Below are positions 3,030 to 61,560 of a stretch of DNA of 64,000 bases, piece by piece. The notes under the pieces were generated by a model, which worked only from the letters and a program-made list of their open reading frames with translations, did not search any database and had not been told where the DNA came from. This DNA comes from Thermoanaerobaculia bacterium (GTDB lineage: Bacteria > Acidobacteriota > Thermoanaerobaculia > Multivoradales > UBA5704). Location: NCBI GenBank assembly GCA_035536935.1, contig DATLNC010000183.1, positions 188 to 64,187 on the forward strand, in the 5' to 3' direction. Position 1 is the first letter of the stretch, and each line of letters begins with the position of its first letter. Both the position numbers and the translations under genes were made by a program.

Positions 3030-3109
3030 GCTGAAGCTCTCCGACCAGATAAGGTAGCACGGAGCCTGGGGTTTCAACCCCAGGCGGAGGACCATGGCAG
3101 AATGAGCCC

Positions 3110-5692: not shown

Positions 5693-5700
5693 GACCGTCG

Positions 5701-5925
5701 GAACTGACTTCCGGGCGGTGGGAAGTCAGTTCCGGACGATGGGAAGTGACTTCCGGACAGTCGCAAGTGAGCTCCGGAGAGGAGGAAGTGACATCCGGAC
5801 GGTTGGAAGTGAGCTCCGGGCCTTGGGAAGTGAGCTCCGGAGGATGGGATCTCACTTCCGGGTGGTGGGAAGTGACTTCCGAGCGGCGGGGAAGTGACTT
5901 CAGGATGCCCGGAAGTCAGATGCGC
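5701..5925. repeat. Family-A phased palindrome array, copy 1 (11 units of 21 nt)
   Basis: Units start at 5701, 5722, 5743, 5764, 5785, 5806, 5827, 5848, 5869, 5891 and 5912. Core GAAGTGACTTCCGG plus a 7-nt linker RNNNTGG. Confidence 0.95.
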
Positions 5926-5968
5926 GGGAGCCTTCCGGCCCCCGCGCGTTGTTGCGGTCAGCGTCGGC

Positions 5969-6421
5969 TCAGTTGCCGGAAGAAGCCGCCGCGACGGCCA
6001 TGCCCTTGGCCTCTTCGTAGCAGGCGGAGGCGACCGCGCTGTCCTTCTTCAGGCCCAGGGCCTGCCAGCAGGCATCCATCGCGGCCTTCCGGTTGCCCTT
6101 CTCGATCGACATCTGGCCGATGGCAACCAGCGCGTCATGGTTCGGCTGCAGCGCGTTGGAGCTCTGGAACTCCGCCCAGGCCTTCTCCAGGAGCTTCGCC
6201 TTCTTCTTGGCGTCCGTCTCCTTGTCGGCCTTGTCCTTGAAGCGCAGACCCTTGGCGAGGTGGTCGGCGGACTTCACCTGCGGATCCTTGTAGTTGCCAC
6301 CGAAGCTGGTGTTCGAGCCGACGCCGCGGTCACCGGTCGGACTTCCGAATTGCGCGCTCGCCGGAACGGCCAGCGCGAGGGTCAGGACGGCAACGGCGAA
6401 GAGCTTCTTGAAGGTGTTCAT
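5969..6421 (-). CDS. Small secreted helical (TPR-like) protein
   Basis: ATG 6419-6421 is preceded by AGGAGAG. Signal peptide MNTFKKLFAVAVLTLALAVPASAQ. Helical Lys/Ala-rich body. Confidence 0.7.
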   Translation of the reverse strand: MNTFKKLFAVAVLTLALAVPASAQFGSPTGDRGVGSNTSFGGNYKDPQVKSADHLAKGLRFKDKADKETDAKKKAKLLEKAWAEFQSSNALQPNHDALVAIGQMSIEKGNRKAAMDACWQALGLKKDSAVASACYEEAKGMAVAAASSGN

Positions 6422-6789
6422 GACAGGTCTCTCTCCTTTGGTGAGATCTTGCAACTTCTGTTATACGGGTGCAAGGGGTAATTTGTTGAAGCTCACTGCG
6501 CTACCGTCCTCTAGACGGGTCAGGTACTGCCTTGAATCCCTTTCTTTCGCACCTGATTGCGATTGCGATGCCTGCCTCTCCAAATTGATTCCCGGAAGTG
6601 TTTAAACCTTTGTCCTGTCGATGTTTCTGGCTTTCCGGGAGGAAGAGAGGCACGGAGCAGGGCGGATCCGGCGTCCTCCGGAGAGGTCGATCCAGCCCTC
6701 GTCAGGTTGCAGGGGCGAGGAAGTACCCGATTTCCCGCCGCGAAGCACTCTCTTGGGTGAGACCCTTTCGCAAATTTCAAGGAGGAAAA

Positions 6790-7551
6790 ATGTCGCGCAA
6801 GACTTTGGCAGTACTGGCACTCGCTTCGCTGTCGCTGGTTCCCCGGGCGTTCGCCATCACCTATGGCGTGCCCGACGGCGGCGATCATCCGAACGTGGGG
6901 GGAGTGATCCTGCAGGAGCCCGGGGGAGAGAAGTTCCTCGTGTGCACGGGCACGCTCATCTCCCCGACGGTGGTCCTCACCGCGGCGCACTGCATCGACG
7001 CGGGCGCCGCGTATTTCGTCAGCTTCGACCGGGATATCACGTCCAGGTCCAAGCTCTACGCGGGAACGGCGTACGTCCACCCGGGCTACACATTCGCCCA
7101 GAATGACCCCAACGACGTGGCGGTGATCGTGTTTGCGCAGGCGGTCCGGGGGATCACGCCGGCTTCCCTGCCCTCGGCGGGCCTGCTCGACCGCCTGTCG
7201 CTGCACGGCCAGAAGTTCACCGCCGTGGGCTACGGGCTGCACGAGCCGAACATCGGCGGCGGCCCGATCTCGTTCGACGACGTCAGCGACCGCTGGCGCT
7301 CGGTCTCGGAGTTCAACGCGCTGAGCAGCGCCTGGCTGCGGTTGTCGCAGAACCCCGCGACCGGCGATGGCGGGACCTGCTACGGCGACTCGGGCGGTCC
7401 GAACTTCCTCGGCGCGGGCGCCAATGAGACGCCGATCATCGCCGGGGTCACGATCACTGGCGACTACTTCTGCCGCGCCACCAATGCGACCGGCCGGCTC
7501 GACACGCCGTCCGCCCGCTCGTTCCTGGGCGTGTTCGTCACGCTGAATTGA
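6790..7551 (+). CDS. Secreted trypsin-like (S1 family) serine protease
   Basis: GGAGG RBS. Signal peptide MSRKTLAVLALASLSLVPRAFA. Catalytic motifs LTAAHC, NDVAVI, CYGDSGGP. Confidence 0.9.
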   Translation: MSRKTLAVLALASLSLVPRAFAITYGVPDGGDHPNVGGVILQEPGGEKFLVCTGTLISPTVVLTAAHCIDAGAAYFVSFDRDITSRSKLYAGTAYVHPGYTFAQNDPNDVAVIVFAQAVRGITPASLPSAGLLDRLSLHGQKFTAVGYGLHEPNIGGGPISFDDVSDRWRSVSEFNALSSAWLRLSQNPATGDGGTCYGDSGGPNFLGAGANETPIIAGVTITGDYFCRATNATGRLDTPSARSFLGVFVTLN

Positions 7552-7552
7552 C

Positions 7553-7604
7553 CCCGTTCCCCTCTCCCCAGCCCTCTCCCCCGTTCCGGGGGAGAGGGAG
7601 CCGG
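7553..7604. repeat. REP-like hairpin/G4-motif element, copy R1
   Basis: CCCCTCTCCCCAGCCCTCTCCCCC-GTTCC-GGGGGAGAGGG, lying between convergent gene ends. Confidence 0.85.
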
Positions 7605-7611
7605 GCTTCAG

Positions 7612-8937
7612 CTAACCCCTCAGTTCCAGCCCGCTCACCAGGATCGTCGGAGCTCCGATCATCCCGGCGAGCGGCTGGAAGGTGAGGTCCCGCCCGACGC
7701 CCGCGATCCCCTGAAGGAAGTCGCCGATGCCGCCGCAGAGCCAGGCCCGCGCGACCGGCGCGCTCGCCCGGCCGGCCTCGACCGCGAAGCCGCAGACGGG
7801 CAGGGCGAAGGTGCCCGCGCCGAGGTCGAACCGGCCGCCGCCCGTGGTGTCGATCAGGTAATAGCCCTCGGACATGGAGCCCAACAACGAGGCCACCGGG
7901 ATGCGCGGGTCCGGTTTGAGGTAGAGATGGGTGGGCCCGGCGGCAGGTAGATCGCGCCAGCCCGGCCGGCCCGTGCACCCCGAGGCCGTGCCCATCCCCG
8001 GGTGGGACTCGGCCTGCCACCAGGTGAGGAGAGGCTGCCGGAACACCCCTTCCTCGACCAGGACGATCTCGCGGGTGGGCACGCCTTCGCCGTCGACCGG
8101 GGCGTCGAGCACCCCGCCGGCGGAGCCGGGCAACCGGCCGTTGTCGATCAGGGTCAGCTGCTCGCTGCCGATCCGGCCGCGGCGGTCGCGCAGGCCGGAG
8201 AGGAGGGTTCCCGCCCGGGGACCCACCAGCATCGGGAGGAGGCCGCAGAGGAGCCGCGCCACGATCGGGGGCGCGAGCAGGAGCTCGCCATGGTCGCGGT
8301 CCGGCGGAGAGCCCTGCGCGGAGACGGCGAGGCGGTCGGCCAGACGGCGCGCCAGGGCCGTGGGGTGGAACTTGCGCGCATCCCGGGCCGAGAGGTAGAC
8401 CGATGCCGACGACCGGCCGGGACCGGCAGCTTCCAGATGGAGGGTCGCGAGCCGGGCGCGGGTGCGGGCGCGCACTCCCCGGCTGTTGACGACATCGCTC
8501 TCGCTCGATCCGTCCTCCAGCGCGGCGCGCAGCAACCGGGCCCCCGGCAGCTCGGAGGCGAGCTCCCGGCCGAGGCTCTCCAGGAGCTTGAGCCCCTCGC
8601 GCTCGCCCACGAGCGGAGCGTCGAGCTCCGCAGGGTCGCTCCAGGGAGCCGTCTCCAATACCGCGGAGGGCTCGGGCAGGCGCAGCGGCCGGCCGGTCGC
8701 CTCGGGCCAGGGCCAGCCCGGGAGCGGCTCCCCCGTCCCGGCGGCGAAGAAGGACCGGCGCGGATCGCCGGCGCGCACCGCCCAGCCCTGCTCCTGGCTG
8801 AAGACGGAGGAATCGGTGTGCGGCGTGACTTCCAAACGGCGGGAGCGGCCCCGCTTGGCGAAGACCTCCACGTCCGGCATGCCGCGCCGCATCAGCGCGA
8901 CCATGACCTCGTCGAGGAGTGGCGCCGTCAGAGTCAT
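7612..8937 (-). CDS. pmbA: PmbA/TldE-family metalloprotease subunit
   Basis: Start MTLTAPLLDEVMVALMRRG at ATG 8935-8937. TldD/PmbA family fold, directly downstream of tldD. Confidence 0.8.
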   Translation of the reverse strand: MTLTAPLLDEVMVALMRRGMPDVEVFAKRGRSRRLEVTPHTDSSVFSQEQGWAVRAGDPRRSFFAAGTGEPLPGWPWPEATGRPLRLPEPSAVLETAPWSDPAELDAPLVGEREGLKLLESLGRELASELPGARLLRAALEDGSSESDVVNSRGVRARTRARLATLHLEAAGPGRSSASVYLSARDARKFHPTALARRLADRLAVSAQGSPPDRDHGELLLAPPIVARLLCGLLPMLVGPRAGTLLSGLRDRRGRIGSEQLTLIDNGRLPGSAGGVLDAPVDGEGVPTREIVLVEEGVFRQPLLTWWQAESHPGMGTASGCTGRPGWRDLPAAGPTHLYLKPDPRIPVASLLGSMSEGYYLIDTTGGGRFDLGAGTFALPVCGFAVEAGRASAPVARAWLCGGIGDFLQGIAGVGRDLTFQPLAGMIGAPTILVSGLELRG

Positions 8938-10318: not shown

Positions 10319-10418
10319 GAAAAGGACCCAAAGGACACCAAGGACCGCAAGGACATCAAGGACGGGCTTCCGGGTCCTTGCGGTCCTTGATGTCCTTGCG
10401 GTCCTTTATGTCCTTGAT
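10319..10418. repeat. Mirror-image block of 9-nt iterons (5x NNNAAGGAC, centre, 5x GTCCTTNNN)
   Basis: 18-bp perfect inverted repeat 10346-10363 / 10383-10400. Located in the tldD / carboxyltransferase divergent intergenic region. Confidence 0.9.
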
Positions 10419-10443
10419 CCCCCTGGGATAGACTCCCCCTCCT

Positions 10444-11997
10444 ATGGCCCCAACCCAGGCGATCGAGGAGCTCCGGAACCGGCTCGCCGCGGCCGAGCTC
10501 GGCGGCGGGGAAGACCGCATCCGCAAGCAGCACGAGGCGGGCAAGCTCACGGCGCGCGAGCGCGTCGAGCTGCTCCTCGACGCCGGCTCGTTCGTCGAGG
10601 TCGATGCCCTGGTCACCCACCGCTGCACCGACTTCGGCATGCAGAAGCAGAAGGTCCCCGGCGACGGGGTCATCTGCGGCTATGGCACGGTCGAGGGCCG
10701 GCTGGTCTACCTCTTCGCCCAGGACTTCACCGTCTTCGGCGGCTCGCTCTCCGAGACCAACGCCCAGAAGATCTGCAAGATCATGGACCTGGCGGTCGAG
10801 AACGGCGCGCCGGTCATCGGGCTCAACGACTCGGGCGGCGCCCGCATCCAGGAGGGGGTCGCCTCCCTCGGCGGCTATGCCGACATCTTCCTGCGCAACA
10901 CCCTGTCCTCAGGGGTGGTGCCGCAGATCAGCGCGATCATGGGACCCTGCGCGGGCGGCGCGGTCTACTCGCCGGCGATCACCGACTTCATCTTCATGGT
11001 CGAGGGGACGAGCTACATGTTCGTCACCGGCCCCGAAGTCATCAAGACCGTGACCCATGAAGAGGTCACGATGGAAGACCTGGGCGGCGCCAGCGCGCAC
11101 GCGGTGAAGAGCGGCGTCTGCCATTTCACCCGCCCCAACGACGCCGCCTGCCTCGCCGCCATCCGGGAGCTGCTCTCCTACCTGCCGGGCAACAACCTGG
11201 ACGAGCCGCCGCCGGGGCACAGCGAGGACGATCCGAACCGCGAGTCCGAGCTCCTGGACACCCTGGTCCCCGAAGATCCGAACAAGCCCTACGACATCAA
11301 GCCGCTCATCGCGGCGGTGGTCGACGACGGCAAGTTCCTGGAAGTCCACGCGCAGTACGCCAAGAACATCGTGGTCGGGTTCGCGCGCATCGACAACCGC
11401 TCGGTGGGGATCGTGGCCAACCAGCCGGCCTGGCTGGCCGGGGTGCTGGACATCGACGCGTCGCTCAAGGGCGCGCGGTTCGTGCGTTTCTGCGATGCTT
11501 TCAACATCCCCCTGGTTACCTTCGAGGACGTGCCCGGCTTCATGCCGGGGACGCAGCAGGAGTTCGGCGGCATCATCAAGCATGGGGCGAAGCTCCTGTA
11601 TGCCTTCGCCGAGGCTACCGTGCCGAAAGTCACGGTGATCACGCGCAAGGCGTACGGCGGCGCTTATACCGTCATGTCGAGCAAGCACCTGCGGACCGAC
11701 GTCAACTTCGCCTACCCGACGGCGGAGATCGCGGTGATGGGGCCGGAAGGCGCGGTCAACATCCTCTACCGCAGGGAGCTGGAGAAGGCGGGAGAGGACG
11801 CGCCGCGGGTGCGCGCCGAGAAGGTGGCGGAGTACCGCGCCAAGTTCTCGAACCCGTACATCGCGGCCGAGCGCGGCTTCGTGGATGCCGTGCTGGAGCC
11901 GCGCCGGACCCGGCCCGAGATCGTGCGCGCCCTGCGGCAGCTCCGCAGCAAGCGGGCGGCCGTGCCGCCGAAGAAGCATGGGAACATACCTTTGTAG
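10444..11997 (+). CDS. pccB: Acyl-CoA (propionyl/methylmalonyl-CoA) carboxyltransferase beta subunit
   Basis: Full-length match to the carboxyl-transferase family: [42 protein letters not shown]. Confidence 0.9.
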
Positions 11998-23996: not shown

Positions 23997-24003
23997 TCCC
24001 GTT

Positions 24004-24130
24004 CCCCCTCGCCCCAGCCCTCTCCCCCGTGCCGGGGGAGAGGGGGCCGAACGGCCGCCATGTGGTTTCTTGCCGGGTATGGGTGGGGGCTCCCTCTCCC
24101 GCGAAGCGGGGGAGGGCAGGGGAGGGGGCT
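24004..24130. repeat. Inverted pair of REP-like hairpin/G4 elements (R2a, R2b)
   Basis: 24004-24049 and 24084-24130 are reverse complements of one another around a 34-nt centre. Confidence 0.85.
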
Positions 24131-24135
24131 TCTTC

Positions 24136-25044
24136 CTACCCTTCCGAAGTATCCAGCCGCTCGCGCCGCAGCGAAGCGATCGCTCCGAGCAGCCCGGCGC
24201 CTCCGCCGAGGAGCACCAGGAGCGCGGCTTGTCCCGGGGTGAGGAACCCCGTGGTGAGCACCGAGGCCGCGAGCGATCCCGTGCTCCGCGCCACGGCGGC
24301 CTGGTAGAGCAGATAGAGCCCGCCGGTGGCGAGCCCGCCGCCGATCAGCCCCTGGAGCAGCCCCTCGGTGTAGAACGGTCCGCGGATGTAGAACTCCGTG
24401 GCGCCCACCAGGCGCAGGATGGAGATCTCCTCCTGGTGCAGAAAAGCGGTCAGGCGGATCACGCTGCCCGTGGTGAAGATCGCCGCTCCCAGCAGCACGC
24501 CGGCCAGGGTCAGCCCGATCCCCCTCCCCAGGGCCACCAGCGTTTCGAGCTGTCCGAGCCACTCGCGATCGTCGTCCACCATCTCGACCTCGGCCCGCTG
24601 CCGCCACGCCTCGATCCAGGCCTGTGCCTCGGATCGCCGCGCGCCAGGGTCTTTCAGGCCGACCTCGATCGACGGCGGCAGCGGCTCCTCCTCCCATCCC
24701 TCGACCAGATCCGACATGCCGGGGAAGGTCTCGCGGAAGCGCGCCCGCGCCGCCGCTGAAGTCACGGCTTGCGCCGAGGCCACCCAGGGAGCCTGGCGCG
24801 CATCGGCCGTCAACTGCACCAGGACCGCATCCGGCGTGCCCGGCTTCAGATAGACCACGATCCGCATCTCGCGGCGCCAGCGCTCCACCGACTCGAGCAG
24901 GTTGCGGCTGGCGAGCAGGAAAGCGCCGCCGAGCAGCAGGCTCACCGCGATGGTCAGAATGGCCACGAGGCTCGTCTTCCAGCCGCGCACCAGGTTCACC
25001 AGGGCCTCGCGGATGAAATAGGTGAGAGCTCCGAGAAGCGTCAT
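24136..25044 (-). CDS. ftsX: Cell-division ABC permease-like protein FtsX
   Basis: Four-TM FtsX architecture. ATGA overlap with ftsE. Confidence 0.9.
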   Translation of the reverse strand: MTLLGALTYFIREALVNLVRGWKTSLVAILTIAVSLLLGGAFLLASRNLLESVERWRREMRIVVYLKPGTPDAVLVQLTADARQAPWVASAQAVTSAAARARFRETFPGMSDLVEGWEEEPLPPSIEVGLKDPGARRSEAQAWIEAWRQRAEVEMVDDDREWLGQLETLVALGRGIGLTLAGVLLGAAIFTTGSVIRLTAFLHQEEISILRLVGATEFYIRGPFYTEGLLQGLIGGGLATGGLYLLYQAAVARSTGSLAASVLTTGFLTPGQAALLVLLGGGAGLLGAIASLRRERLDTSEG

Positions 25045-25760
25045 GGCTCCTGTTGCTCCTCGGGTGTGGACAACCGCGGGGGAGAGGTCCCCTCGAGCTC
25101 GACATCCGCGGCGACCCTGCCTTTCTCGAGCGTGATCACCCGCTTGCCGACGCGCTGGATGAGATCCCGGTCATGGGTGGCGAGGATCACCGTGGTGCCG
25201 CGCAGGTTCACCTCCAGGAAGAGGCGCAGGATCTCCCAGGAGAGGTCGGGGTCGAGGTTGCCGGTGGGCTCGTCGGCGATCAGGATGTCCGGCTCGTTGA
25301 TGAGCGCCCGGGCGATCGCCACGCGCTGCTGCTCGCCGCCGGAAAGCTCGGGCGGAAAGGCGTTGAGGCGATGGGCGAGCCCCACCCGGCGCAGCGCCTG
25401 GAAGGCGAGCTGCTTCCGGGCCGTCAGATCCTGGCCCAGGATGCGCGGCAGGTAGGTGACGTTCTCGAAGACCGTCTTGCGGGAGATCAGCCGGAAGTTC
25501 TGGAACACCACGCCGATGGTGCGCCGCAGGTAGGGGATCTTGCTGCGCGGGATCGAGGCCACGTTGCGGCCGTTGACCACGATCTGCCCTTCGGAGGGGA
25601 TCTCCTCGCGGAAGATCAGCCGCAGAAGCGTGGTCTTGCCCGCGCCGCTCGCGCCCGTGAGGAAGACGAACTGCCCGCGCGGGATCTCGAAGCTGACGTC
25701 GTTCAGCGCCGGCTCCTGGTTGCCCGGGTAGCGCTTGCTGACCTGGAAGAACTGGATCAA
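25041..25760 (-). CDS. ftsE: Cell-division ATP-binding protein FtsE
   Basis: MIQFFQVSKRY, GASGAGKTT, LSGGEQQRVAIARA, ILIADEPTGNLD. The TTG start overlaps the gatB stop (TTGA). Confidence 0.93.
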   Translation of the reverse strand: MIQFFQVSKRYPGNQEPALNDVSFEIPRGQFVFLTGASGAGKTTLLRLIFREEIPSEGQIVVNGRNVASIPRSKIPYLRRTIGVVFQNFRLISRKTVFENVTYLPRILGQDLTARKQLAFQALRRVGLAHRLNAFPPELSGGEQQRVAIARALINEPDILIADEPTGNLDPDLSWEILRLFLEVNLRGTTVILATHDRDLIQRVGKRVITLEKGRVAADVELEGTSPPRLSTPEEQQEP

Positions 25761-27214
25761 GGCACTGTTTCGCTCTCCAGCGCCTGCCGGAGAAGCTGCT
25801 GCACGACCTTGGGGTCCGCCCTGCCGCCCGACCGCTTCATCACCTGTCCCACGAGGAAGCCCATCACCTGGGCCTTGCCCGACCGCACCTGGTTGACCTG
25901 AGCGGGATGGGCCTCGATCACCTCCTCGATCCAGCGCTCGATCTGCGACGTGTCGCTCACCTGTCCCAGGCCGAGCCGCTCCAGCGCGGCGGCGGGCTCC
26001 TCGCCCGACTGCCAGACGGCGGCGAAGACCTCCTTGGCTGCGCTGTGGGAGATCTTCCCCGAGTCCACCAGGCCGACGATCGCGGCAAGGCGGGCAGGAG
26101 GAAGGACCTCATCGATCCCGATCCTGCGCTCCTTGACCTCGCGCAGCACCTCGCCCATGACCCAGTTGGCGACCCCCTTGGGATTTCCGGGGAGCGCCGA
26201 AGCCGAGGCTTCAAAGTAATCGGCGAGCTCGCGCGACGAGGTGAGCACGGAGGCGTCGGCGGCAGAGAGGCCGTACTGGGCGGCGATCCGGTTGCGCCGC
26301 TCCCAGGGCAGCTCGGGCAATCCGGCGCGCACGGCCTCGATGCGCTCGGCGGTCAACACCAGGGCCGGCAGGTCGGGCTCGGGGAAATAGCGGTAGTCGT
26401 GCGCCTCCTCCTTGCTCCGGAGCAGACGGGTCGCGCCGGTTTCGGCGTTGTAGGAGCGCGTCTCCTGGACCACCCGGCCGCCGGACTCGAGGATCTCCAC
26501 CTGGCGCCCGATCTCGTGCTCGATGGCGCGGGCCACGTTGCGGAACGAGTTGAGGTTCTTGACCTCGGCCTTGGTGCCCAGCTTGCTCTCGCCCCGGCGG
26601 CGGACGGAGACGTTGGCATCGCAGCGCAGGCTCCCCTCCTCCATGTTGGCGTCGCTCGTGCCGGTGTAGAGCAGGAGCTGGTGGAGGGTCTGCAGGTAGT
26701 CCGCGGCCTCGGCGGCGCTCGAAATGTCCGGCCGGGAGACGATTTCTACAAGGGGTACACCGCAACGGTTGAAATCCACGAGGCTCTGGCCGGGGAGCGC
26801 GCCGCCGCCCGGCGCCTCGTGCAGGAGCTTGCCCGCGTCCTCCTCGAGATGAAGGCGCTCCAGGCGCACGCTCTTCTCGTGCTGGGTCAGGGGCAGCCCG
26901 CCCCCGTCCGCGAGCGGCCGGTCGAACTGGCTGATCTGGTAGCCCTTGGGGAGGTCGGGGTAGACGTAATTCTTGCGCGCGAAGACCGAGCGCGGATGGA
27001 CGTCGGCTCCGAGGGCGAGCGCCAGCCGCGTGGCCAGGTCGACCGCCTGCCGGTTGACCACGGGCAGCGCGCCGGGGTAGCCCAGGCAGACCGGGCAGAC
27101 GAGCGTGTTCGGGGCCGCGCCGAACCGGTTCGGACAGCGGCAGAACATCTTGGTCTCGGTCAGGAGCTGGACGTGGACCTCGAGCCCGATGACCGCTTCG
27201 TACCCGTGCGACAT
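25757..27214 (-). CDS. gatB: Asp/Glu-tRNA amidotransferase subunit B
   Basis: MSHGYEAVIGLEVHVQL...CPVCLGYPGALP. Start moved to ATG 27212-27214. Confidence 0.95.
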   Translation of the reverse strand: MSHGYEAVIGLEVHVQLLTETKMFCRCPNRFGAAPNTLVCPVCLGYPGALPVVNRQAVDLATRLALALGADVHPRSVFARKNYVYPDLPKGYQISQFDRPLADGGGLPLTQHEKSVRLERLHLEEDAGKLLHEAPGGGALPGQSLVDFNRCGVPLVEIVSRPDISSAAEAADYLQTLHQLLLYTGTSDANMEEGSLRCDANVSVRRRGESKLGTKAEVKNLNSFRNVARAIEHEIGRQVEILESGGRVVQETRSYNAETGATRLLRSKEEAHDYRYFPEPDLPALVLTAERIEAVRAGLPELPWERRNRIAAQYGLSAADASVLTSSRELADYFEASASALPGNPKGVANWVMGEVLREVKERRIGIDEVLPPARLAAIVGLVDSGKISHSAAKEVFAAVWQSGEEPAAALERLGLGQVSDTSQIERWIEEVIEAHPAQVNQVRSGKAQVMGFLVGQVMKRSGGRADPKVVQQLLRQALESETVP

Positions 27215-27313
27215 ATGGGCCGGTAGTCTAGCGCAGATCGGCATGGTCCAGGGCGCGGGCACGGGAGATGCATCCGACTTTGGCATGACGGGTTCTACGG
27301 AGGTGATTGCATC

Positions 27314-27484
27314 ATGAGCGGCCTCAAAGAAGCAGAGCGGGAATTGGAGAAGGTCGAAGAGGTGCTCGCCATGGCGGACCGGGCCATCCAGATCTCGCGC
27401 GTGGAACAGGAGCGGCTTTCGTCCGATCTGGCTTCCGCGATATCCGAGAGCGAATTGAGCGGCCCGGCTGTCGAACAGGTCTAG
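27314..27484 (+). CDS. Candidate 56-aa coiled-coil protein (below the ORF-track cutoff)
   Basis: GGAGGTG lies 8 nt before ATG 27314. MSGLKEAERELEKVEEVLAMADRAIQISRVEQERLSSDLASAISESELSGPAVEQV, then TAG at 27482. Confidence 0.4.
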   Translation: MSGLKEAERELEKVEEVLAMADRAIQISRVEQERLSSDLASAISESELSGPAVEQV

Positions 27485-27492
27485 CAGGCACC

Positions 27493-28383
27493 TCACGGGC
27501 TCGGCAGCTGCGCAAGCTGCGCGGACGCCAAAGGCCTGGCGAGGATGACCGTATAGTAGGTAGGGTGTTCCGCTGCGAGGTGGGCCCGCTCGGCGTCGAT
27601 CACGGACTTGAGAAGGCCGGTTCTTTCGGCAGCAGTCAGGTGCTCCAGGCGAAGGTGTGGATGGATGACGGCCAGGAAATTGCCGCCATAGTCATGACGC
27701 TCGAGCACGTCAAAGTGGCGGTGCAAGGCATCGAGGATCTCCGAGGATCTCACGGCTTCGGTGGGGTCGCGCCAATCGACAGGCAGCTTGAGGCTCCGGG
27801 ACCTTCTTACGGAAGGAGGTAGCTGCGCAAAGATCTCGGAGGCCGCTTCGATGAGGGAGAACGACCACTCGCCACGTGAGGGCCCCACATATTCATCGAT
27901 ATACACCAGAGCTCCGGGCAGCAGCGCGGCTGCCGTGACAGAAAGGCAGGAGTCCAACTCTTCAGCATGGTGGAGAGCCTGGTGAAAGAAGGCCGCGTCG
28001 AAAGCGGCCTCGGGGAGATCGAGCGCGTTCATGTCCCCGCGTTCGTATCTTGCGCCGGTCAGGCCTTGTGCCCGGGCTTTCGCCTCGGCCAGCTGCAAAG
28101 CTTCCGTCGAGAGGTCGATGCCAAGTATGGACGTGCAGAGCCCTTTGGAGAGCAGATCGCGTTCCAGGGCGCCTTCTCCGCAGCCGATGCTGACGGCCGC
28201 CGTGAACGGTGACTGAATGACGGTTCGGAGCCATTCGATGGGCCAGACTTTCGGCGAGCCCGTAACGGATTCGTTGATGTACTCACGGACGATGGCTTCG
28301 TGCATCCAGGTCCGCAAGCTCCCTTCGGCGAAGGTGCGTCCCCAGAAGCGGCTCCCGATGTACGAGCGTAGCTTCATCCACAT
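27493..28383 (-). CDS. Class I SAM-dependent methyltransferase
   Basis: Motif I SIGCGEGALERDL, ILGIDLS, acidic loop. GC is noticeably lower than in the neighbours. The start is uncertain (28377-28407). Confidence 0.8.
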   Translation of the reverse strand: MWMKLRSYIGSRFWGRTFAEGSLRTWMHEAIVREYINESVTGSPKVWPIEWLRTVIQSPFTAAVSIGCGEGALERDLLSKGLCTSILGIDLSTEALQLAEAKARAQGLTGARYERGDMNALDLPEAAFDAAFFHQALHHAEELDSCLSVTAAALLPGALVYIDEYVGPSRGEWSFSLIEAASEIFAQLPPSVRRSRSLKLPVDWRDPTEAVRSSEILDALHRHFDVLERHDYGGNFLAVIHPHLRLEHLTAAERTGLLKSVIDAERAHLAAEHPTYYTVILARPLASAQLAQLPSP

Positions 28384-28396
28384 CTCATTCACTCGC

Positions 28397-28621
28397 GGGC
28401 AAGTCACTTCCCCACGGCCGGGAAGTCATTTCCCACAGCTCGGAAGTCACTTCCCCAGGCTGGGAAGTCATTTCCCGCAGTCCGGAAGTCACTTCCCACC
28501 CTCCGGCAGTCCTTCCGACCGTCCCGCAAGTCACTTCCCATGACCCGGAAGTCACTTCCGACCACCCGGAAGTCATTTCCCAACGCCCGGATCTCAGTTC
28601 AGAACGCCCGGAAGCTGTCTC
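28397..28621. repeat. Family-A phased palindrome array, copy 2 (11 units, inverted orientation)
   Basis: CCGGAAGTCACTTC cores start at 28397, 28419, 28440, 28461, 28482, 28503, 28524, 28545, 28566, 28587 and 28608. Confidence 0.95.
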
Positions 28622-28652
28622 CGAATAGTACTCCGGTACAATCCCTGCCCGC

Positions 28653-29273
28653 ATGAGCTACTGGGTCTGGCGCGACCATCAAGGCGATGTCGAAGTCCGG
28701 TTCACGGGCCGGGGGCCTGCCGGAGAGCGGGACGAGATCCTGGCCTGTATCGAGCGGGGCGCTCCTCCGGTCGCCTGGGCGAAGCAGATCCACTCCGCAA
28801 CGGTCCTGCCCGCCCATCCCGGACATTGCGGCGAGGGGGATGCCCTCTTCGGGGATGCTCCGGACCTCGCGCTGTCCGTGGTGACGGCCGACTGCGTGCC
28901 GGTCCTTCTCGCCGGTCCCAAGGGATTGGCGGCGGTCCACGCCGGATGGCGGGGGCTGGTCGGCGGCGTGATCCCGGCTGCGTTGGAAAAGCTTGGTGGA
29001 GCAGATACGGCCTGGATCGGTCCGGCGATCGGACCCTGCTGCTACGAGGTGGGCGAGGAGGTGGCGGAGCAGTTCCCGGAGGAAACGGTCATTCCCGGAC
29101 CCAAGCCGCACCTGGACCTGGTCGCGGCGGCCCGGCTCCAGTTGAAGGATGTCGAGGAGATCCGCGCCGTGGGGATCTGCACGCGGTGCGCGGCGGACCG
29201 GCTCTACAGCTATCGCAGGGAAGGCAAGGGGGTGGGGCGGAACGTGGCTTTCATCTGGAGGCGGTCCTCCTGA
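28653..29273 (+). CDS. pgeF: YfiH/PgeF-family (DUF152) peptidoglycan editing factor / laccase-domain protein
   Basis: QIHSATV, TADCVPVLL, AVHAGWRG, GPCCYEVG, ICTRC..LYSYRREG. Confidence 0.88.
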   Translation: MSYWVWRDHQGDVEVRFTGRGPAGERDEILACIERGAPPVAWAKQIHSATVLPAHPGHCGEGDALFGDAPDLALSVVTADCVPVLLAGPKGLAAVHAGWRGLVGGVIPAALEKLGGADTAWIGPAIGPCCYEVGEEVAEQFPEETVIPGPKPHLDLVAAARLQLKDVEEIRAVGICTRCAADRLYSYRREGKGVGRNVAFIWRRSS

Positions 29274-29406
29274 AGCTGGCCGCAAGCCGCGCCTTCCCTG
29301 GGAGCGCCGGCGTCTCGCCGGCCCACGCTCCCCGCAACCACGGTGGCCGGCCTTCGGCCAATTGTCTTCAGAATGCCGGCGGGACGCCGGCGCTCCCAGG
29401 GAAAGC

Positions 29407-30498
29407 CTACCTGGCGCCGTTCCCAGGGGAAGCGCCCCGCGCCCTGACGCCGCGCGGATCGCGGCCGAACGCCCGGAGCTGACCGCACGCGGCGCTGACG
29501 TCGTCGCCCCTCCGCCGGCGGACCGTGGCGATCAATCCCTTCTGGCGCAGCCGCTCCTGGAAGCGGTCGGTCGCCTCGTCGTCCGGCGGGATCATGCGGT
29601 CGCCCAGCACCCGGTCCGGGTTGATCGGGATCAGGTTGACCTTGGCGCGCAAGCCGCTCAGCAGCTTGACCAGGCGGTCGGCATCGCGGACGGAGTCGTT
29701 CACGTCCCGGATCAGGATGTACTCGAAGGTGATCTTGCGCCCCTTCTCCAGCGGGTAGCGGCGGAGGGCGGCCATCAGGTCGGCGAGCGGCCAGGTGCGG
29801 TTGATCGGCATGATCCCGGTGCGCTTTTCGTCGTCCGGGGCATGCAGGGAAATGGCGAGGTTGGGGCGGCGCTCCCAGGCGGCCATCTCTTCCAGGCCGG
29901 GCAGGATGCCCACGGTCGAGACGGTGATCCGGTGCGGCGAGATCCACTCGGTGAGGATGTCGAGCGCGGCTTTCACGTTTTCCAGGTTGAGCAGCGGCTC
30001 GCCCATGCCCATGAAGACGATGTTGAGCCCCTCCATGGGGAGGCTCGCATCGGCGCGGATCGCCAGCACCTGGCCCACGATCTCGCCCGCCGTGAGGTTG
30101 CGGCCCGCTCCCCAGTAGCCGGTCACGCAGAACGAGCACGCCAGGGCGCAGCCGGCCTGGCTGGAGATGCAGAACGTCCGGCGGTGGCGCTCGGGGATGT
30201 CGACCGCCTCGATGGTGGCGCCGTCGTGCAGCTTGAACAGGTACTTGCAGGTGCCGTCCGAGGCGAGCCGCTTCTCGGAGATCTCGGGCAGGCCGATGCG
30301 GAAACGCTCCGCGAGACGAGCGCGCAGGTCCTTGCCGAGGTCGGTCATCCCGGAGACGTCGCGGACGGCCCGGGCATAGAGCGCCTGATAGACCTGCTCC
30401 GCGCGGAACGGGCGGTCGATGACCGGCGCGAGCGCTTCGGCGAGGCGCTCCCGGTTCAGGCCGAGAAGGTCGGTGCGGGTCTCGATTGCGGTTTCCAT
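29407..30498 (-). CDS. rlmN: 23S rRNA/tRNA A2503-C2 methyltransferase RlmN (radical SAM)
   Basis: CISSQAGCALACSFCVTG, GMGEPL, full-length match. Confidence 0.93.
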   Translation of the reverse strand: METAIETRTDLLGLNRERLAEALAPVIDRPFRAEQVYQALYARAVRDVSGMTDLGKDLRARLAERFRIGLPEISEKRLASDGTCKYLFKLHDGATIEAVDIPERHRRTFCISSQAGCALACSFCVTGYWGAGRNLTAGEIVGQVLAIRADASLPMEGLNIVFMGMGEPLLNLENVKAALDILTEWISPHRITVSTVGILPGLEEMAAWERRPNLAISLHAPDDEKRTGIMPINRTWPLADLMAALRRYPLEKGRKITFEYILIRDVNDSVRDADRLVKLLSGLRAKVNLIPINPDRVLGDRMIPPDDEATDRFQERLRQKGLIATVRRRRGDDVSAACGQLRAFGRDPRGVRARGASPGNGAR

Positions 30499-30514
30499 GA
30501 TGCTTTTCGGACCC

Positions 30515-30626
30515 CCTCCTCGATCCTCCCGCGCTTCGCGGGAGAGGACGCCGCCTCCCTCATTATGGCAGCAGTGGGCGGGGGGCTCCCTCTCCCGCGC
30601 AGCGGGGGAGGGCTGGGGAGGGGGTT
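30515..30626. repeat. REP-like hairpin/G4 element R3 plus a degenerate partner
   Basis: 30578-30626 reads GGCTCCCTCTCCCGCGCAGCGGGGGAGGGCTGGGGAGGGGG. A degenerate hairpin CCTCCCGCGCTTCGCGGGAGAGG lies at 30523-30550. Confidence 0.75.
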
Positions 30627-30630
30627 CTTT

Positions 30631-30951
30631 TCAAGTCGCCGTGGTGCGGCGCCGGCGCAGCCGCCGGGTGGGATCGATGCCGATCGACCGCAGGAAGTTC
30701 AGGTCGCGGCCGTCGATCTGGAAGACCGGCTCGCCCGTTCCGGAGCGGAAGCTCGGGGCGGTCAGCGAGAGCGGCTCTTCGTCGAGGCTCTCCCGCTTGC
30801 AGTCGACCAGCAGGTAGAGCGCGTAGCCCTCCTCGCGGATCTTCCGCAGCGTCCGATTGACTTCCGCCGAATCGGATATCGCCTCGGAGAGAGCGCGCCG
30901 CAGCTCGCGCAGCATCTGATGGAGCTTGTCGTCCAGCTCGAGGTCCTCCAC
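30631..30951 (-). CDS. Hypothetical small protein
   Basis: 106-aa ORF with a GTG start and coding-like composition. No clear RBS and no family recognised. Confidence 0.45.
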   Translation of the reverse strand: MEDLELDDKLHQMLRELRRALSEAISDSAEVNRTLRKIREEGYALYLLVDCKRESLDEEPLSLTAPSFRSGTGEPVFQIDGRDLNFLRSIGIDPTRRLRRRRTTAT

Positions 30952-31114
30952 GGCCAGGTTTTACGGGGCCGGCTGCCGGGATTATCACCCCTGTCCCAGA
31001 GGGTGTCAAACGACGGCGAGGCATTCAACAAAAGCCCGTGCACCCGCCATTCCACAGAGGGTTGCCCGCTCGGATCGTGTTAGTCTATCGGGCCTTGCCC
31101 AGAGGGATTTTTTG

Positions 31115-32071
31115 ATGCCGCAACCCTTCGTTCAGAGCGGGCTCGAGACCTGGCTCGCCGCCGCCGGCTTCCCGGGGTGCGAGCCCCGGCAGCTGCCCGG
31201 CGACGTCTCGCCCCGGCGCTACACCCGCCTGATCGGAGCGGACGGCGGCAGCGCGATCCTCGCCACCTATCCGCCGGAGATCCGCGCCGCCTGCGCCCGC
31301 TTCCTGCGCACCACCGCGCTGCTGGAGCCGGCCGGCGTCCCCGTGCCGCGGGTGCTCGCTTCGTCCTGCGACGAGGGCTGGATGCTGGTGGAGGATCTCG
31401 GGCCGGAGACGCTGGCCGAGTGGGGCCGCGGCCGGCCGTGGAGCGAGCTGCAGCCGTACTTCGAGCGGGCGCTCGAGCTGGTGGAGCGCATCGGCCGCAT
31501 TCCCGTCGAGAGTGTGGAGGGTCTCAACCCGCGGCTCGGCGGCGAGCTGCTGCGCAAGGAGCTCGCGCAGACCTGGGACCTCTTCCTGGAGCCCAAGGGC
31601 CTCACCGGCGGCGAGCCGCTGACCCGCGCCCTGGGCGCCGCCCTGGATGCGATCTGCGCCAACCTGGACGCGGAGACTCCGATTACCTGCCATCGGGACT
31701 TCATGGTGCGCAACCTGATGCCGGTGTCGGATGGACTGGTCGTGCTCGATCATCAGGACTTGCGCCTCGGGCCTCCGGCCTACGATCTGGCCTCGCTGCT
31801 CAACGACACCCTCTTTCCACCTCCGGAGATGGAGGAGGCGCTGCTCGCCGGGGCATCTTTCGACCCGGTCAGCTATCACCGGGCCGCGGCGCAGCGCACG
31901 CTCAAGGCGATCGGCACCTATGCCTCCTTCGCCTTGCGCGGGGCCGACCGCCATCTGCCGCTCGTGCCGGCGACCCTGGGCCGCTGTCTGGCTCATCTCG
32001 CCCGGGTACCCGAGAGCGCGCCGCTGGTCTCCGACCTGGCCGAGGTCTGGTCCTCCGTGCTGATCTGCTAG
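31115..32071 (+). CDS. APH-fold phosphotransferase (AmgK-like sugar kinase family suspected)
   Basis: GDVSPRRYTRL, CHRDFMVRNLM, LDHQDLRLGPPAYDLASLLND. Confidence 0.7.
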   Translation: MPQPFVQSGLETWLAAAGFPGCEPRQLPGDVSPRRYTRLIGADGGSAILATYPPEIRAACARFLRTTALLEPAGVPVPRVLASSCDEGWMLVEDLGPETLAEWGRGRPWSELQPYFERALELVERIGRIPVESVEGLNPRLGGELLRKELAQTWDLFLEPKGLTGGEPLTRALGAALDAICANLDAETPITCHRDFMVRNLMPVSDGLVVLDHQDLRLGPPAYDLASLLNDTLFPPPEMEEALLAGASFDPVSYHRAAAQRTLKAIGTYASFALRGADRHLPLVPATLGRCLAHLARVPESAPLVSDLAEVWSSVLIC

Positions 32072-47800: not shown

Positions 47801-48170
47801 GGGCCGATTTGAGGGGCTTAGACTCGATCCAAGAAGCCTAGACCGGGTTCAAGGAGCTTGGATCCGTCCGAAGAAGCTCCGGGCCGATTTAAGCGGCTTG
47901 AATCGGATCTAAGAGGCTTAGAGCCCGATTCAAGCGGCTCCGACCGGATTTAAGAAGCTTAAATCGGATCTAAGAGGCTTGTGTCCGTCCCAAGAGGCTC
48001 AGATCCGATCTAAGAAGCTTCGAGCCGGATTCAAGGAGCTTAGATCCCATCCAAGAAGCTCAGACCGGAATTAAGAGGCTTGGATCCGATCTGAGAAGCT
48101 TCGAGCCGATCCACGGATTTTGGGACGGTTTCAAGGAACGTGGGGCCGGTCCAAGCGGCTTACAGCGCCT
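47801..48170. repeat. Family-B phased array (about 18 units of 20 nt, AAGAAGCTT + RGATCNGATCY)
   Basis: AAG unit starts at 47831, 47851, 47871, 47891, 47911, 47932, 47952, 47972, 47992, 48012, 48033, 48053, 48073 and 48093, continuing to about 48153. Confidence 0.93.
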
Positions 48171-51231: not shown

Positions 51232-51372
51232 GTCTATCCTCCCTCGGTCGCTTCCCAAAACGATTCTACTCCCTTCGCCGCGACTCCGGAATCCCCGGGC
51301 TCCTTCCCGGGTTTTGAGAGGCGCGGCGCTCCGCGCGTACGTATATAAATAGTCAGGGGGATTCCAAGAGCC

Positions 51373-52464: not shown

Positions 52465-52483
52465 GCCCGACGAAAGGAAAACG

Positions 52484-60562: not shown

Positions 60563-61366
60563 ATGACCACGAAGAAGGACGGCGAAGGCCAGGGCAGCTA
60601 CGTCTTCCGTGTCCGCGAGGACACCCGGCGCTACGTCCAGGACCTGCTCAACGAGAACGACCGGCTGCGCCGGCTGGTGGCGGGGCTGGAGAGCGACAAG
60701 GGCCGTCTCCTGGGCGAGAAGATGTCGCTCCAGGAGAAGGTCCTGGCCCTGCGCGAGGAGCTCGACCGGGTCTCCCACGAGCAGGCCGACCTTCGCCGCC
60801 AGCTCGCCGACGTGGAGGCCTCCAACCAGAAGTACTCGCACCAGTACATCGAGGTGGAGAGCCAGAACAACAACCTGGCGAACCTCTACGTCGCGAGCTA
60901 CCAGCTCCACAGCACGCTCGACCGGGCCGAGGTGGTCTCCGCGATCAAGGAGATCGTCATCAACCTGATCGGCTCCGAGGAGCTGGCGATCTACGAGATG
61001 AGCCCGGACGGCACGGCGCTGCGGCTGGCAGGCTGGTTCGGCATCGACCCGGCCATCTACGGCACCGTGACGGTCGGCTCGGGGATCATCGGGAAGACGG
61101 TCGCGACCGGCGAGATCTGGCTCCCCGGCAAGGGCATGGACCTCCAGCCCGCGCCGCGGGAGTCGAACCTCTCGGTCTGCATCCCGCTGAAGCTGGAGGA
61201 AAGGGTGATCGGAGCGCTCGCCGTCTTCCGCCTGCTCCCCCAGAAGACCGCCTTCGAGGCGATCGACTACGAGCTCTTCAACCTGCTGGCCACCCACGCC
61301 GCCACGGCCCTGTATCTTTCCCGGCTCCACGCCGAGAGCCAGGCAGCAGTGAAGTCAGTTCCCTGA
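60563..61366 (+). CDS. Coiled-coil plus GAF-domain protein
   Basis: GGAGG RBS. Coiled coil of about 100 aa, then a GAF-like region LDRAEVVSAIKEIVINLIG...GIIGKTVATGE...VIGALAVFRL. Confidence 0.8.
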   Translation: MTTKKDGEGQGSYVFRVREDTRRYVQDLLNENDRLRRLVAGLESDKGRLLGEKMSLQEKVLALREELDRVSHEQADLRRQLADVEASNQKYSHQYIEVESQNNNLANLYVASYQLHSTLDRAEVVSAIKEIVINLIGSEELAIYEMSPDGTALRLAGWFGIDPAIYGTVTVGSGIIGKTVATGEIWLPGKGMDLQPAPRESNLSVCIPLKLEERVIGALAVFRLLPQKTAFEAIDYELFNLLATHAATALYLSRLHAESQAAVKSVP

Positions 61367-61560
61367 CGTCTGACATGACTTCCGGGGGCTCGGATCTCAG
61401 TTCCGGGCCGCCGGAAGTGAGTTCCGGGGGGCGGGAAGTGACTTCCGGACAGGGGGAAGTCATTTCCGGACGTTGGGAAGTGAGTTCCGGGCCTTGAGAA
61501 GTGAGTTCCGGACGGTGGGAAGTGAGCTCAGATCGCTCGGAAGTGACTTCCGAGCCGTAC
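61351..61560. repeat. Family-A phased palindrome array, copy 3 (10 units, exact 21-nt phase)
   Basis: Units start at 61351, 61372, 61393, 61414, 61435, 61456, 61477, 61498, 61519 and 61540. Confidence 0.95.

Follow-up and report, generated by a model that had tools for sequence, protein, structure and literature searches.

A dispersed family of 21-bp palindromic minisatellites in a Thermoanaerobaculia genome, with one array on a rearrangement junction between a methyltransferase gene and pgeF and a possible role as phased protein-binding DNA

Tandem arrays of a 21-bp palindromic unit, here called family A, were analysed in a 64,000-nt stretch of contig DATLNC010000183.1 from an uncultured soil bacterium of the class Thermoanaerobaculia (the window), with emphasis on the second of three copies, copy 2, which separates the divergent starts of a class I methyltransferase gene and pgeF. 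By its sequence and distribution, family A is a set of dispersed intergenic 21-bp minisatellites that was previously undescribed, and copy 2, to judge from alignments with relatives, sits exactly on a lineage-specific rearrangement junction. The reading that we favour, with a probability of about 0.45, is that the array acts as double-stranded DNA, in the form of phased sites for a putative dimeric protein. Comparison loci are designated below by L-numbers (L019 and so on).

Eight cores of copy 2, each with no more than two mismatches to GGAAGTSACTTCC, were located on the plus strand by core search, at 28399, 28421, 28442, 28463, 28484, 28526, 28547 and 28568, and three more units, at 28505, 28589 and 28610, were found to be degenerate yet in phase, which brings the total to 11. 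All unit steps are 21 nt but one, of 22 nt (28399 to 28421). Tandem Repeats Finder returned the interval 28401–28591 with a period of 21, 9.0 copies and a score of 166, together with a second call of period 42 (28401–28614). Read on the minus strand, the unit is composed of a 13-bp dyad-symmetric core, GGAA-S-T-S-A-S-TTCC, and an 8-nt G-rich linker, and the consensus unit of the family is GGAAGTGACTTCCGGRCNGTG. With at least nine head-to-tail 21-nt units, the core GGAASTSASTTCC and a G-rich linker, copy 2 has the features by which family A is defined. When up to three mismatches were allowed, the core was matched 66 times in the window, versus 18.5 ± 4.6 times in shuffled sequence (none of 100 shuffles reached 66), and nearly all 66 matches fall inside the three arrays. 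The preliminary description of this stretch had presented copy 2 as an inverted array of 11 units in 21-nt phase, and its coordinates were found to hold throughout by reading, core search and Tandem Repeats Finder; its assignment to the same family as copies 1 and 3, as the reverse complement, is borne out by the G-rich unit GGAAGTGACTTCC-GGRCNGTG, which lies on the minus strand in copy 2 and on the plus strand in the other two. The placement of the array between the starts of the methyltransferase gene and pgeF agrees equally with domain matches, with the start position of pgeF in relatives and with a 296-aa (amino acid) gene call on an identical 2.2-kb Logan contig (run SRR8543488; L020), in which the methyltransferase also starts at the ATG at 28383. 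Copy 2 thus fills essentially the whole of the 269-nt gap separating the two divergent start codons.

The conservation within the unit was evaluated on 178 units from at least eight genomes, chosen by core similarity (no more than three mismatches). Information was found to be symmetric about position 7, with the six arm pairs carrying 1.5/1.6, 1.1/1.4, 1.8/1.7, 1.6/1.5, 0.8/1.2 and 1.7/1.6 bits; it is high at positions 1–4, 6, 8 and 10–13 and amounts to just 0.2–1.0 bits in the linker. Positions 5, 7 and 9 alternate between G and C, and the counts for the pair 5/9 were 52 for C..C, 22 for G..G and 4 for the compensated C..G. Pairing was assessed in an alignment of 106 two-unit segments against 500 shuffles: the hairpin within the core was paired in 78.7% versus 80.7% in shuffled alignments (499 of 500 shuffles reached the observed value) and the hairpin between units in 82.2% versus 83.2% (474 of 500), and double-sided changes at paired positions were rarer than expected for both hairpins. 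The unit hairpins are weak, with energies of −1 to −3 kcal/mol within the core and −6 to −7 kcal/mol between units. Covariation of the hairpins was therefore rejected, since no compensatory arm change was found and pairing lay slightly below the shuffled controls, and the earlier suggestion that transcripts of copy 2 might act through hairpins is left unsupported. Two half-sites that are conserved independently, the tolerance of G or C at the alternating positions and the recurring two-turn spacing appear to fit best a series of phased sites for a dimeric DNA-binding protein.

The surroundings of copy 2 were compared with the pgeF loci of five relatives, namely L021 (an 8.38-Mb genome, ERZ25039485 contig_1998), L023 (the metagenome-assembled genome (MAG) BP_59, GCA_034667225.1), L026, L147 and L149, whose PgeF proteins are 88–92% identical to that of the window. 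None of the five carries a tandem repeat upstream of pgeF, so the synteny comparison proposed in the preliminary description indicated that the array is specific to the lineage. When positions 24000–32000 were aligned by blastn with L023 and L026, the stretch 24121–27484 matched at 92% and the match resumed at 28654, whereas in L021 only the end of the left block is present (27121–27484, 86%) and the match resumes at 28659. The block replaced in the window, of 5.6 kb in L023 and L026, encodes an HTH_31 protein, proteins of 500 and 385 aa, a Pterin_4a protein and a protein of 144 aa. In four of the five relatives (L021, L026, L147 and L149), pgeF ends a co-directional operon that contains Pterin_4a, a hypothetical protein and often a GDSL lipase, while in L023 168 nt lie between pgeF and the upstream co-directional gene. 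All five carry the Shine-Dalgarno sequence GGAGGAAG before pgeF; it is missing in the window copy, where homology to the relatives starts at 28654, one base inside the start codon, and the upstream operon is absent. The methyltransferase gene has orthologues in the same clade (83–87% identical) at other loci with no adjoining array, and its nucleotide homology to them is confined to the open reading frame (ORF; 27533–28389). One orthologue adjoins sulfite reductase genes (L153), and another is the last gene of a gas-vesicle operon (L150, where the cluster at 2674–8891 comprises gvpL/F, gvpG, gvpA and gvpK before it), which suggests that the role of the methyltransferase is linked to gas vesicles and that the window copy was displaced from such an operon. 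The same alignments indicate that a methyltransferase ORF located elsewhere in relatives is set head to head with pgeF. Since the orthologous loci differ upstream, both genes have lost their ancestral upstream regions, and only the array and a 30-nt tail remain between their start codons; the rearrangement would thereby have left the array and its promoter-like tail as the whole control region of two displaced genes. The site of copy 2 between two promoters is a secondary outcome of the rearrangement and reflects no conserved regulatory design.

The nearest homologues of PgeF and of the methyltransferase were found in MAGs named as Thermoanaerobaculia or Acidobacteriota, and an actinobacterial origin, considered in view of the GC content and the DUF3516 helicase, was rejected on this account. 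A stretch of lower guanine-plus-cytosine (GC) content had been described as a feature bordering the array. The GC content is indeed 0.61–0.63 across 27100–28750, versus 0.68–0.73 on either side, but the value was traced to the methyltransferase gene (0.62), whose orthologues have values of 0.61 and 0.58; low GC is therefore a property of the gene and no mark of foreign DNA or recent import. On the left side of the junction, a conserved ORF adjoining gatB (27316–27484) corresponds to a 58-aa gene call in relatives, and the homology to the relatives runs to its last codon and no further; the stop codon of the convergent methyltransferase gene lies 8 nt away from its own. The 579-codon gatB ORF is an artefact, the true gatB encoding about 486 aa from a start near 27217.

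The tail, which links the last unit to the ATG of pgeF, was found to resemble the tail of a second array. In BP_59 (L019), a tail of about 90 nt separates the orthologue of copy 1 from a downstream vapBC-like cassette of a ribbon-helix-helix (RHH) antitoxin gene and a PIN toxin gene. A gapped alignment of the end of copy 2 and its tail with L019 gave the shared blocks CGCCCGGAAGC, TGTCTC, CCGGTACAAT and GCCCGC-ATG, in that order. Among the high-GC loci compared, CCGGAAGCT and CCGGTACAAT occur only in the tail of the window (and in L020, its identical copy) and in that of L019, with the same order and the same array end, and upstream of an ATG in both; the chance of finding the 10-mer CCGGTACAAT in a given 100-nt stretch was estimated by us from base composition at about 5e-5. 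L019 was not singled out when the end of copy 2 was used in an ungapped scan, and the homology is drawn from the unique 9-mer and 10-mer and from the gapped alignment. The hexamer TACAAT stands 28 nt before the vapB ATG in BP_59, with a Shine-Dalgarno sequence between them, and 10 nt before the pgeF ATG in the window, with none. As no Shine-Dalgarno sequence follows it, TACAAT is a candidate promoter element for a pgeF mRNA with no leader or almost none. Most simply, an array end would have been re-used before pgeF together with its promoter-like tail, which faces outward. On the other strand of the tail, the hexamer TACTAT, if used, would make the whole array a leader of about 240 nt. The cassette of L019 (2923–3583) has its own Shine-Dalgarno sequence and separates the copy-1 orthologue from the stop codon of the helicase gene; the window is without the cassette, and its array abuts the stop.

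The distribution of family A was assessed by pattern scans of genome and metagenome collections, followed by Tandem Repeats Finder on the loci returned. Arrays were found in about a dozen high-GC metagenome contigs as well as in BP_59 (L019), with 9–16 units, mostly 11, and steps of nearly always 21 nt and sometimes 22; many of them alternate GGAACTGACTTCC and GGAAGTGACTTCC at 42 nt. They occupy gaps between stop codons, co-directional spacers and, in L092 and L102, the interval between a terminator hairpin and lepA; the last two are related contigs with an orthologous array, which supports the view of the preliminary description that the element is not restricted to terminator zones, and its argument against a purely terminator role stands. 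Orthologous arrays keep their ends and position and differ by whole units (11 in L092 and 9 in L102; 11 in L041 and 16 in L072). Copy 1 keeps its position in BP_59 with its units turned over: the flanks are 89–93% identical and the array about 72%, and a permutation test of the unit-by-unit correspondence between arrays was not significant, even for copy 1 and its L019 orthologue. These comparisons indicate that whole units are added and lost and that the arrays change more quickly than the DNA beside them. A unit type GTAAGT...GCAG (T or A at position 2, with a GCAG linker) occurs in L019, L066 and L042 and is absent from the window units scored, and such genome-specific unit types suggest homogenisation within genomes, or concerted evolution.

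No leader, tail, terminal inverted repeat or target duplication was found to be shared across the flanks of 15 arrays, copies 1 and 3 directly abutting stop codons; the sole shared array tail is that of copy 2 and L019. A seemingly shared tail of L041, L072, L058 and L084 proved on translation to be coding sequence, namely the 3' end of a convergent gene that is orthologous in these loci. Unrelated palindromic arrays of period 21 were found, unsought, on contigs that carry family A (families C and D on L099, families E and F on L066, and an array on L059). In L099 (1–1162), three unrelated 21-nt families stand back to back after an intrinsic terminator, with the cores GGAAGT.ACTTCC, CCCATC..GATGGG and CCCGAG-TCG-CTCGGG, and in L066 (700–2340) arrays of three families surround a brnT/brnA-like toxin-antitoxin pair. 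BLAST searches of plasmid and phage collections with the array gave no match, and a search of plasmids with the array of a low-GC relative gave none either; an association with viruses was discarded, as only eight loci matched, with arrays of three to four units. No Rfam family was matched at the gathering score in the whole window, nor at E ≤ 1 in 28300–28720. In the literature, the core sequence was met only in papers on eukaryotic ETS sites, and keyword searches gave nothing specific. Resemblances to ETS sites, lambda Int arm sites (AAGTCACT), EbfC GTnAC, the Noc half-site, GntR-type GT-N-AC, CsrA GGA and sigma-54 serve as leads only, and none is claimed.

Under the favoured reading, each unit would present a 13-bp site with two-fold symmetry, GGAA-N-T-N-A-N-TTCC, of the type bound by a dimeric sequence-specific protein. 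As 21 bp correspond to two helical turns, about 11 such sites would lie on one face of the helix, and the bound protein could assemble cooperatively into a filament or wrap that spans about 230 bp. Assembled on copy 2, the complex would adjoin, on the upstream side, the TACAAT of the tail, from which a leaderless pgeF transcript would result, and it would cover whatever drives the methyltransferase gene, unless the array itself formed the leader of that gene; the array would then serve both genes as an upstream binding platform or insulator. Several observations weigh against this. No protein that binds the arrays came to light, nor does any gene recur beside them, as an all-against-all BLAST of 544 flanking ORFs returned orthologous loci only. 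For copies 1 and 3, which are bounded by stop codons, no promoter role is apparent, so any effect on pgeF and the methyltransferase gene may be incidental. The choice of units by their similarity to the core slightly inflates core conservation, and the exact 21-nt spacing follows from tandem duplication, so that only its recurrence in unrelated families argues for constraint. Array-sized transcripts of copy 2 fold strongly (−128 kcal/mol, z = −6.2; z = −5.3 for the other strand), as any tandem palindrome would, so that a role in RNA is thermodynamically conceivable. A scan for consensus promoters across 27000–29400 gave no full −35/−10 promoter, TACAAT has no recognisable −35 box, and the tail homology comes from two loci. 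The earlier identification of TACAAT as a −10 hexamer has in its favour that, among the high-GC loci compared, CCGGTACAAT occurs just twice, each time past the same family-A array end and before an ATG, and lacks the rest of a promoter. Similarly, of the earlier proposal that the array lies on or next to both promoters, the geometry of a filled divergent gap stands, whereas a conserved design does not, the position being due to rearrangement and the scan being empty.

It is possible, if somewhat unlikely, that family A is a selfish or near-neutral minisatellite that spreads by slippage, unequal exchange and gene conversion and persists where it is harmless, its core being kept by a recombinase or transposase encoded elsewhere or by biased conversion; copy 2 would then be filler at a recombination junction, and any effects on the two genes accidental. 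Much of the distribution agrees with this: the space from one stop codon to the other is taken up exactly by the array in copies 1 and 3, in family B and in a locus of Parabacteroides distasonis, there are clear signs of units gained and lost and of higher-order duplications, unit types are genome-specific, and positional homology of units is gone even in orthologous arrays. Additionally, arrays adjoin variable DNA, such as the vapBC insertion of L019, the brnTA-like pair of L066 and the translocated methyltransferase gene of the window, and several families are stacked after the terminator of L099. Yet the core is far more conserved than the linker of the same units, which homogenisation alone does not predict, and the exact 21 nt recurring in unrelated families would require an additional cause. 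Scans of the 64-kb window contained no transposase, RAYT (transposase associated with repetitive extragenic palindromic (REP) sequences) or integrase, none of which recurs beside arrays, and the hallmarks of a mobile element, namely terminal inverted repeats, target duplications and a shared leader or tail, are absent.

A function in RNA, with tandem hairpins serving as terminators, as 3' stabilisers like those of REP sequences, as a structured leader at the 5' end of the methyltransferase mRNA, or as a CsrB-type sponge with a GGAAG in every unit, was judged quite improbable. The folding of both strands of copy 2 far beyond shuffles would suit it, as would the fact that copies 1 and 3 lie right behind stop codons and have their G-rich strand in the same sense as the preceding gene, and C-to-T changes in family D of L099 that, by eye, keep G-T pairing on one strand; each unit also has a GGA motif, at a presumably CsrB-like density. 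Neither hairpin covaries, however, and pairing is at or under the level of shuffles; the frequent variants GGAACTGACTTCC and GGAAGTGAGTTCC lower the hairpin to −1 to −2 kcal/mol, the orientation of arrays relative to neighbouring genes is mixed, the arrays of L099 and L102 already lie downstream of a hairpin like that of an intrinsic terminator, no U-tract follows the arrays, Rfam gave no match at E ≤ 1, and neither copy 2 nor the arrays upstream of lepA are at 3' ends of genes. The array might also be read as a coding heptad repeat, because 21 nt make seven codons and an 89-codon ORF on the minus strand (28654 to 28385), ending 2 nt before the methyltransferase ATG, would give a small W-E-V-T-S-G-x repeat protein. 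This has hardly any likelihood and was rejected: five of the six frames of the consensus unit are without stops, so that open frames are expected by chance; the 22-nt steps break the frame; in those relatives of the family that are AT-rich, the frames stay open for no more than a few dozen nucleotides from the arrays; no gene was called there on the identical Logan contig; and the third-position GC of the repeat frame, by our own count, is about 0.6, versus 0.8–0.95 in the genes of this genome.

Among known elements, REP sequences and bacterial interspersed mosaic elements (BIMEs) are similar in being short imperfect palindromes, dispersed between genes, mostly convergent ones, in clusters of up to about a dozen, with species-specific sequence and several families per genome; they are bound as DNA by gyrase, integration host factor (IHF) and Pol I. 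Family A differs in its head-to-tail arrangement with a strict 21-bp period, as REP sequences alternate as inverted pairs with variable linkers, and in a hairpin that is not kept by covariation. REP sequences associated with RAYT carry GTAG/CGTC tags (PMC3733652). The family-A palindrome is 13 bp long instead of 20–40 bp, its consensus contains neither GTAG nor CGTC, and no Y1_Tnp (RAYT) domain was found among 30 window proteins scanned. The inverted pairs or alternation of REPINs (REP doublets forming hairpins) were not seen, all units of an array sharing one orientation as judged by linker polarity and G-richness. The BrickBuilt elements of Porphyromonas gingivalis, a minisatellite-MITE (MITE, miniature inverted-repeat transposable element), are tandem repeats of about 20 nt without spacers at about 19 intergenic sites, with unit numbers that vary among strains at conserved loci, no Rfam match and a proposed activity as bidirectional or mobile promoters (PMC4596501), a proposal that is paralleled by the promoter-like tail of copy 2. 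Their unit has 23 nt and an unrelated sequence, AGAYCATARTATCCTCTCRTRTG, with no palindrome described in that report, and they possess a conserved leader and tail with IS5-like terminal inverted repeats (PMC4596501), whereas family A has none that are shared.

In mechanism, although not in membership, the 21-bp (occasionally 22-bp) unit of family A with its symmetric 13-bp core resembles the iterons and centromeres of plasmids and phages. In the latter (for example F sopC, R1 parC and the R6K/RK2 iterons), about 5–12 direct repeats spaced by about two turns offer sites, often dyad-symmetric, to dimeric Rep or Par proteins, which bind cooperatively on one face. There is, however, one such array per replicon, by the rep or par gene, whereas at least three copies and a second family are present here in 64 kb of housekeeping chromosome, with no adjoining rep or par gene and no similarity to plasmids or phages. 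Mycobacterial interspersed repetitive units (MIRUs) and other bacterial variable-number tandem repeats are likewise intergenic, vary by whole units that are gained or lost, and evolve more quickly than the sequence around them, but MIRU units measure 40–100 bp and are tied to operon junctions and small ORFs. The tandem repeats of Borgs, which are said to be perfect direct repeats, share the same three properties. They are reported to arise independently at each site (PMC9879509), whereas family A is one palindromic unit family common to dispersed loci. An array of clustered regularly interspaced short palindromic repeats (CRISPR) would have repeats of 23–50 nt with unique spacers of similar length, whereas the 13-nt cores here are set apart by 8-nt linkers that vary around one consensus, and no cas domains were found. 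Similarly, a toxI-like element of a type III toxin-antitoxin system, which would stand directly before a ToxN-type endoribonuclease gene and be transcribed with it, is not indicated, since the downstream gene encodes a class I methyltransferase and no ToxN, and the neighbours of the other arrays are unrelated. The lack of covariation and of a U-tract, together with the position of copy 2 away from a 3' end, likewise separates the array from intrinsic terminators and 3' stabilisers. As family A lacks the defining features of REP/BIME, BrickBuilt and iterons and has no Rfam, plasmid or phage match, it is best regarded as a distinct variant among dispersed intergenic repeats.

Arrays of 21 nt with similar cores were also found in a Streptosporangiaceae MAG (L010), a Bacteroidetes MAG (L018) and many contigs with a GC content of 0.30–0.56, one low-GC host resembling an organism of the Bacteroidota or of the Fibrobacteres–Chlorobi–Bacteroidetes (FCB) group. 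As the search patterns imposed the core and the period, these cross-phylum matches show occurrence only and no conservation. Binomial P-values for conservation of the core across phyla were discarded as biased, because the pattern and its reverse complement GGAANTNACTT fix most positions and the rotation step favours the rest; position 7, which in AT-rich families is G or A and never C or T, is the sole free position that appears constrained. A BLAST search from one low-GC array led to an array of 6.6 × 42 nt in the cultured gut bacterium P. distasonis (Bacteroidota). This array (L162 2495–2760, that is NZ_OY725768.1 5421–5700) fills the gap between convergent lysO and S41 peptidase genes, and its unit splits into two halves of 21 nt, whose A-like cores are GGAAATGACTTTT and GTAAAATGCCTTCC; although labelled as a plasmid, the record carries ribosomal and other core genes. 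A variant array of about eight units of 21–22 nt, GGAGATCACTTCCGGGCGGGC, with a half-core resembling that of family A, was seen in an isolate of Streptomyces hawaiiensis (L009 380–570). A wider proposal, which we hold to be unlikely, is that arrays with a 21-bp period constitute an unrecognised class, made up of sets of about 10 operator-like palindromes two helical turns apart. Several families would be present per genome, each family with its own DNA-binding protein, and each array would form a filament of about 230 bp that could act as an insulator, roadblock or portable promoter module. Such a class may extend past Acidobacteriota, given the GGAARTGAC-like cores in 21- or 42-nt arrays of the Streptosporangiaceae MAG, of the contigs with a GC content of 0.30–0.56 and of P. 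distasonis.

The coordinates of the arrays, of the tail and of the flanking genes are collected in Table 1. Family B has the architecture of family A with an unrelated sequence and takes up most of the gap between the Uma2 and UvrD/PcrA genes; some of its arm variants appear to be compensated or G-T compatible on the plus strand. A hairpin-capable inverted repeat of about 97 nt (10322–10418) was observed between the divergent genes for a PmbA/TldD-like protein and a carboxyltransferase, composed of five 9-nt units (AAGGACnnC), a 10-nt loop, GGGCTTCCGG, and five complementary units (GTCCTTGnn). At 10429–10448, GATAGACT lies 9 nt before the carboxyltransferase ATG as another candidate leaderless promoter, in an arrangement resembling the pgeF tail. 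In a two-gene module (51349–54502), a 687-aa ORF without a Pfam match has its start overlapped by an AAA+ ATPase gene. The other genes of the window are ordinary housekeeping genes, syntenic with relatives; rep, par and cas were, like transposase, RAYT and integrase, absent from the domains of the scanned proteins in the 64-kb window, and a search for tRNA and tmRNA genes found none.

Table 1. Features of the window discussed in the text (positions within the 64,000-nt stretch).
Feature	Position	Strand	Evidence or remarks
Family-A array, copy 1	5700..5923	+	11 units; between stop codons of DUF3516 helicase and 163-aa ORF
Lineage-specific segment (methyltransferase ORF, array and 30-nt tail)	27485..28653		1169 nt in place of 5.6-kb block; blastn
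Class I S-adenosylmethionine-dependent methyltransferase (Methyltransf_11/25/31)	27493..28383	-	Domain match
Family-A array, copy 2	28399..28622	-	11 units of 21 nt; read from sequence, core search and Tandem Repeats Finder
Tail, last unit to pgeF ATG	28623..28652	+	Ordered blocks shared with tail in BP_59 (L019 2818–2925)
TACTAT, −10-like hexamer	28627..28632	-	Points into array, towards methyltransferase
TACAAT, −10-like hexamer	28637..28642	+	15 nt past array end (28622), 10 nt before pgeF ATG
pgeF (YfiH / Cu-oxidase_4 family)	28653..29273	+	Domain match; ATG 28653, start position as in relatives
Family-B array	47811..48170	+	About 17 units of 20–21 nt, core TCTAAG-AAG-CTTAGA; between Uma2 and UvrD/PcrA stop codons
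Family-A array, copy 3	61350..61551	+	About 10 units; whole gap between stop codons of GAF-domain gene and Crp-like gene

The arrays mark hot spots of rearrangement and of the insertion of toxin-antitoxin cassettes. Their unit number differs between close relatives and would be useful in strain typing, and they likely break short-read assemblies of Thermoanaerobaculia. Even if merely selfish, family A would add to the catalogue of REP sequences, BIMEs and MITEs a repeat type with a strict 21-bp period, a 13-bp dyad and no hairpin covariation. The array of P. distasonis, in a cultured host, would make the question of a wider class testable at the bench. If the arrays are indeed platforms for protein, they would be a chromosomal counterpart of the iteron and centromere arrays of plasmids, set in the housekeeping regions of a poorly known phylum, and, because an array-linked tail with a −10 box precedes two unrelated genes, they could account for the renewed expression of genes whose native promoters are lost in rearrangements.

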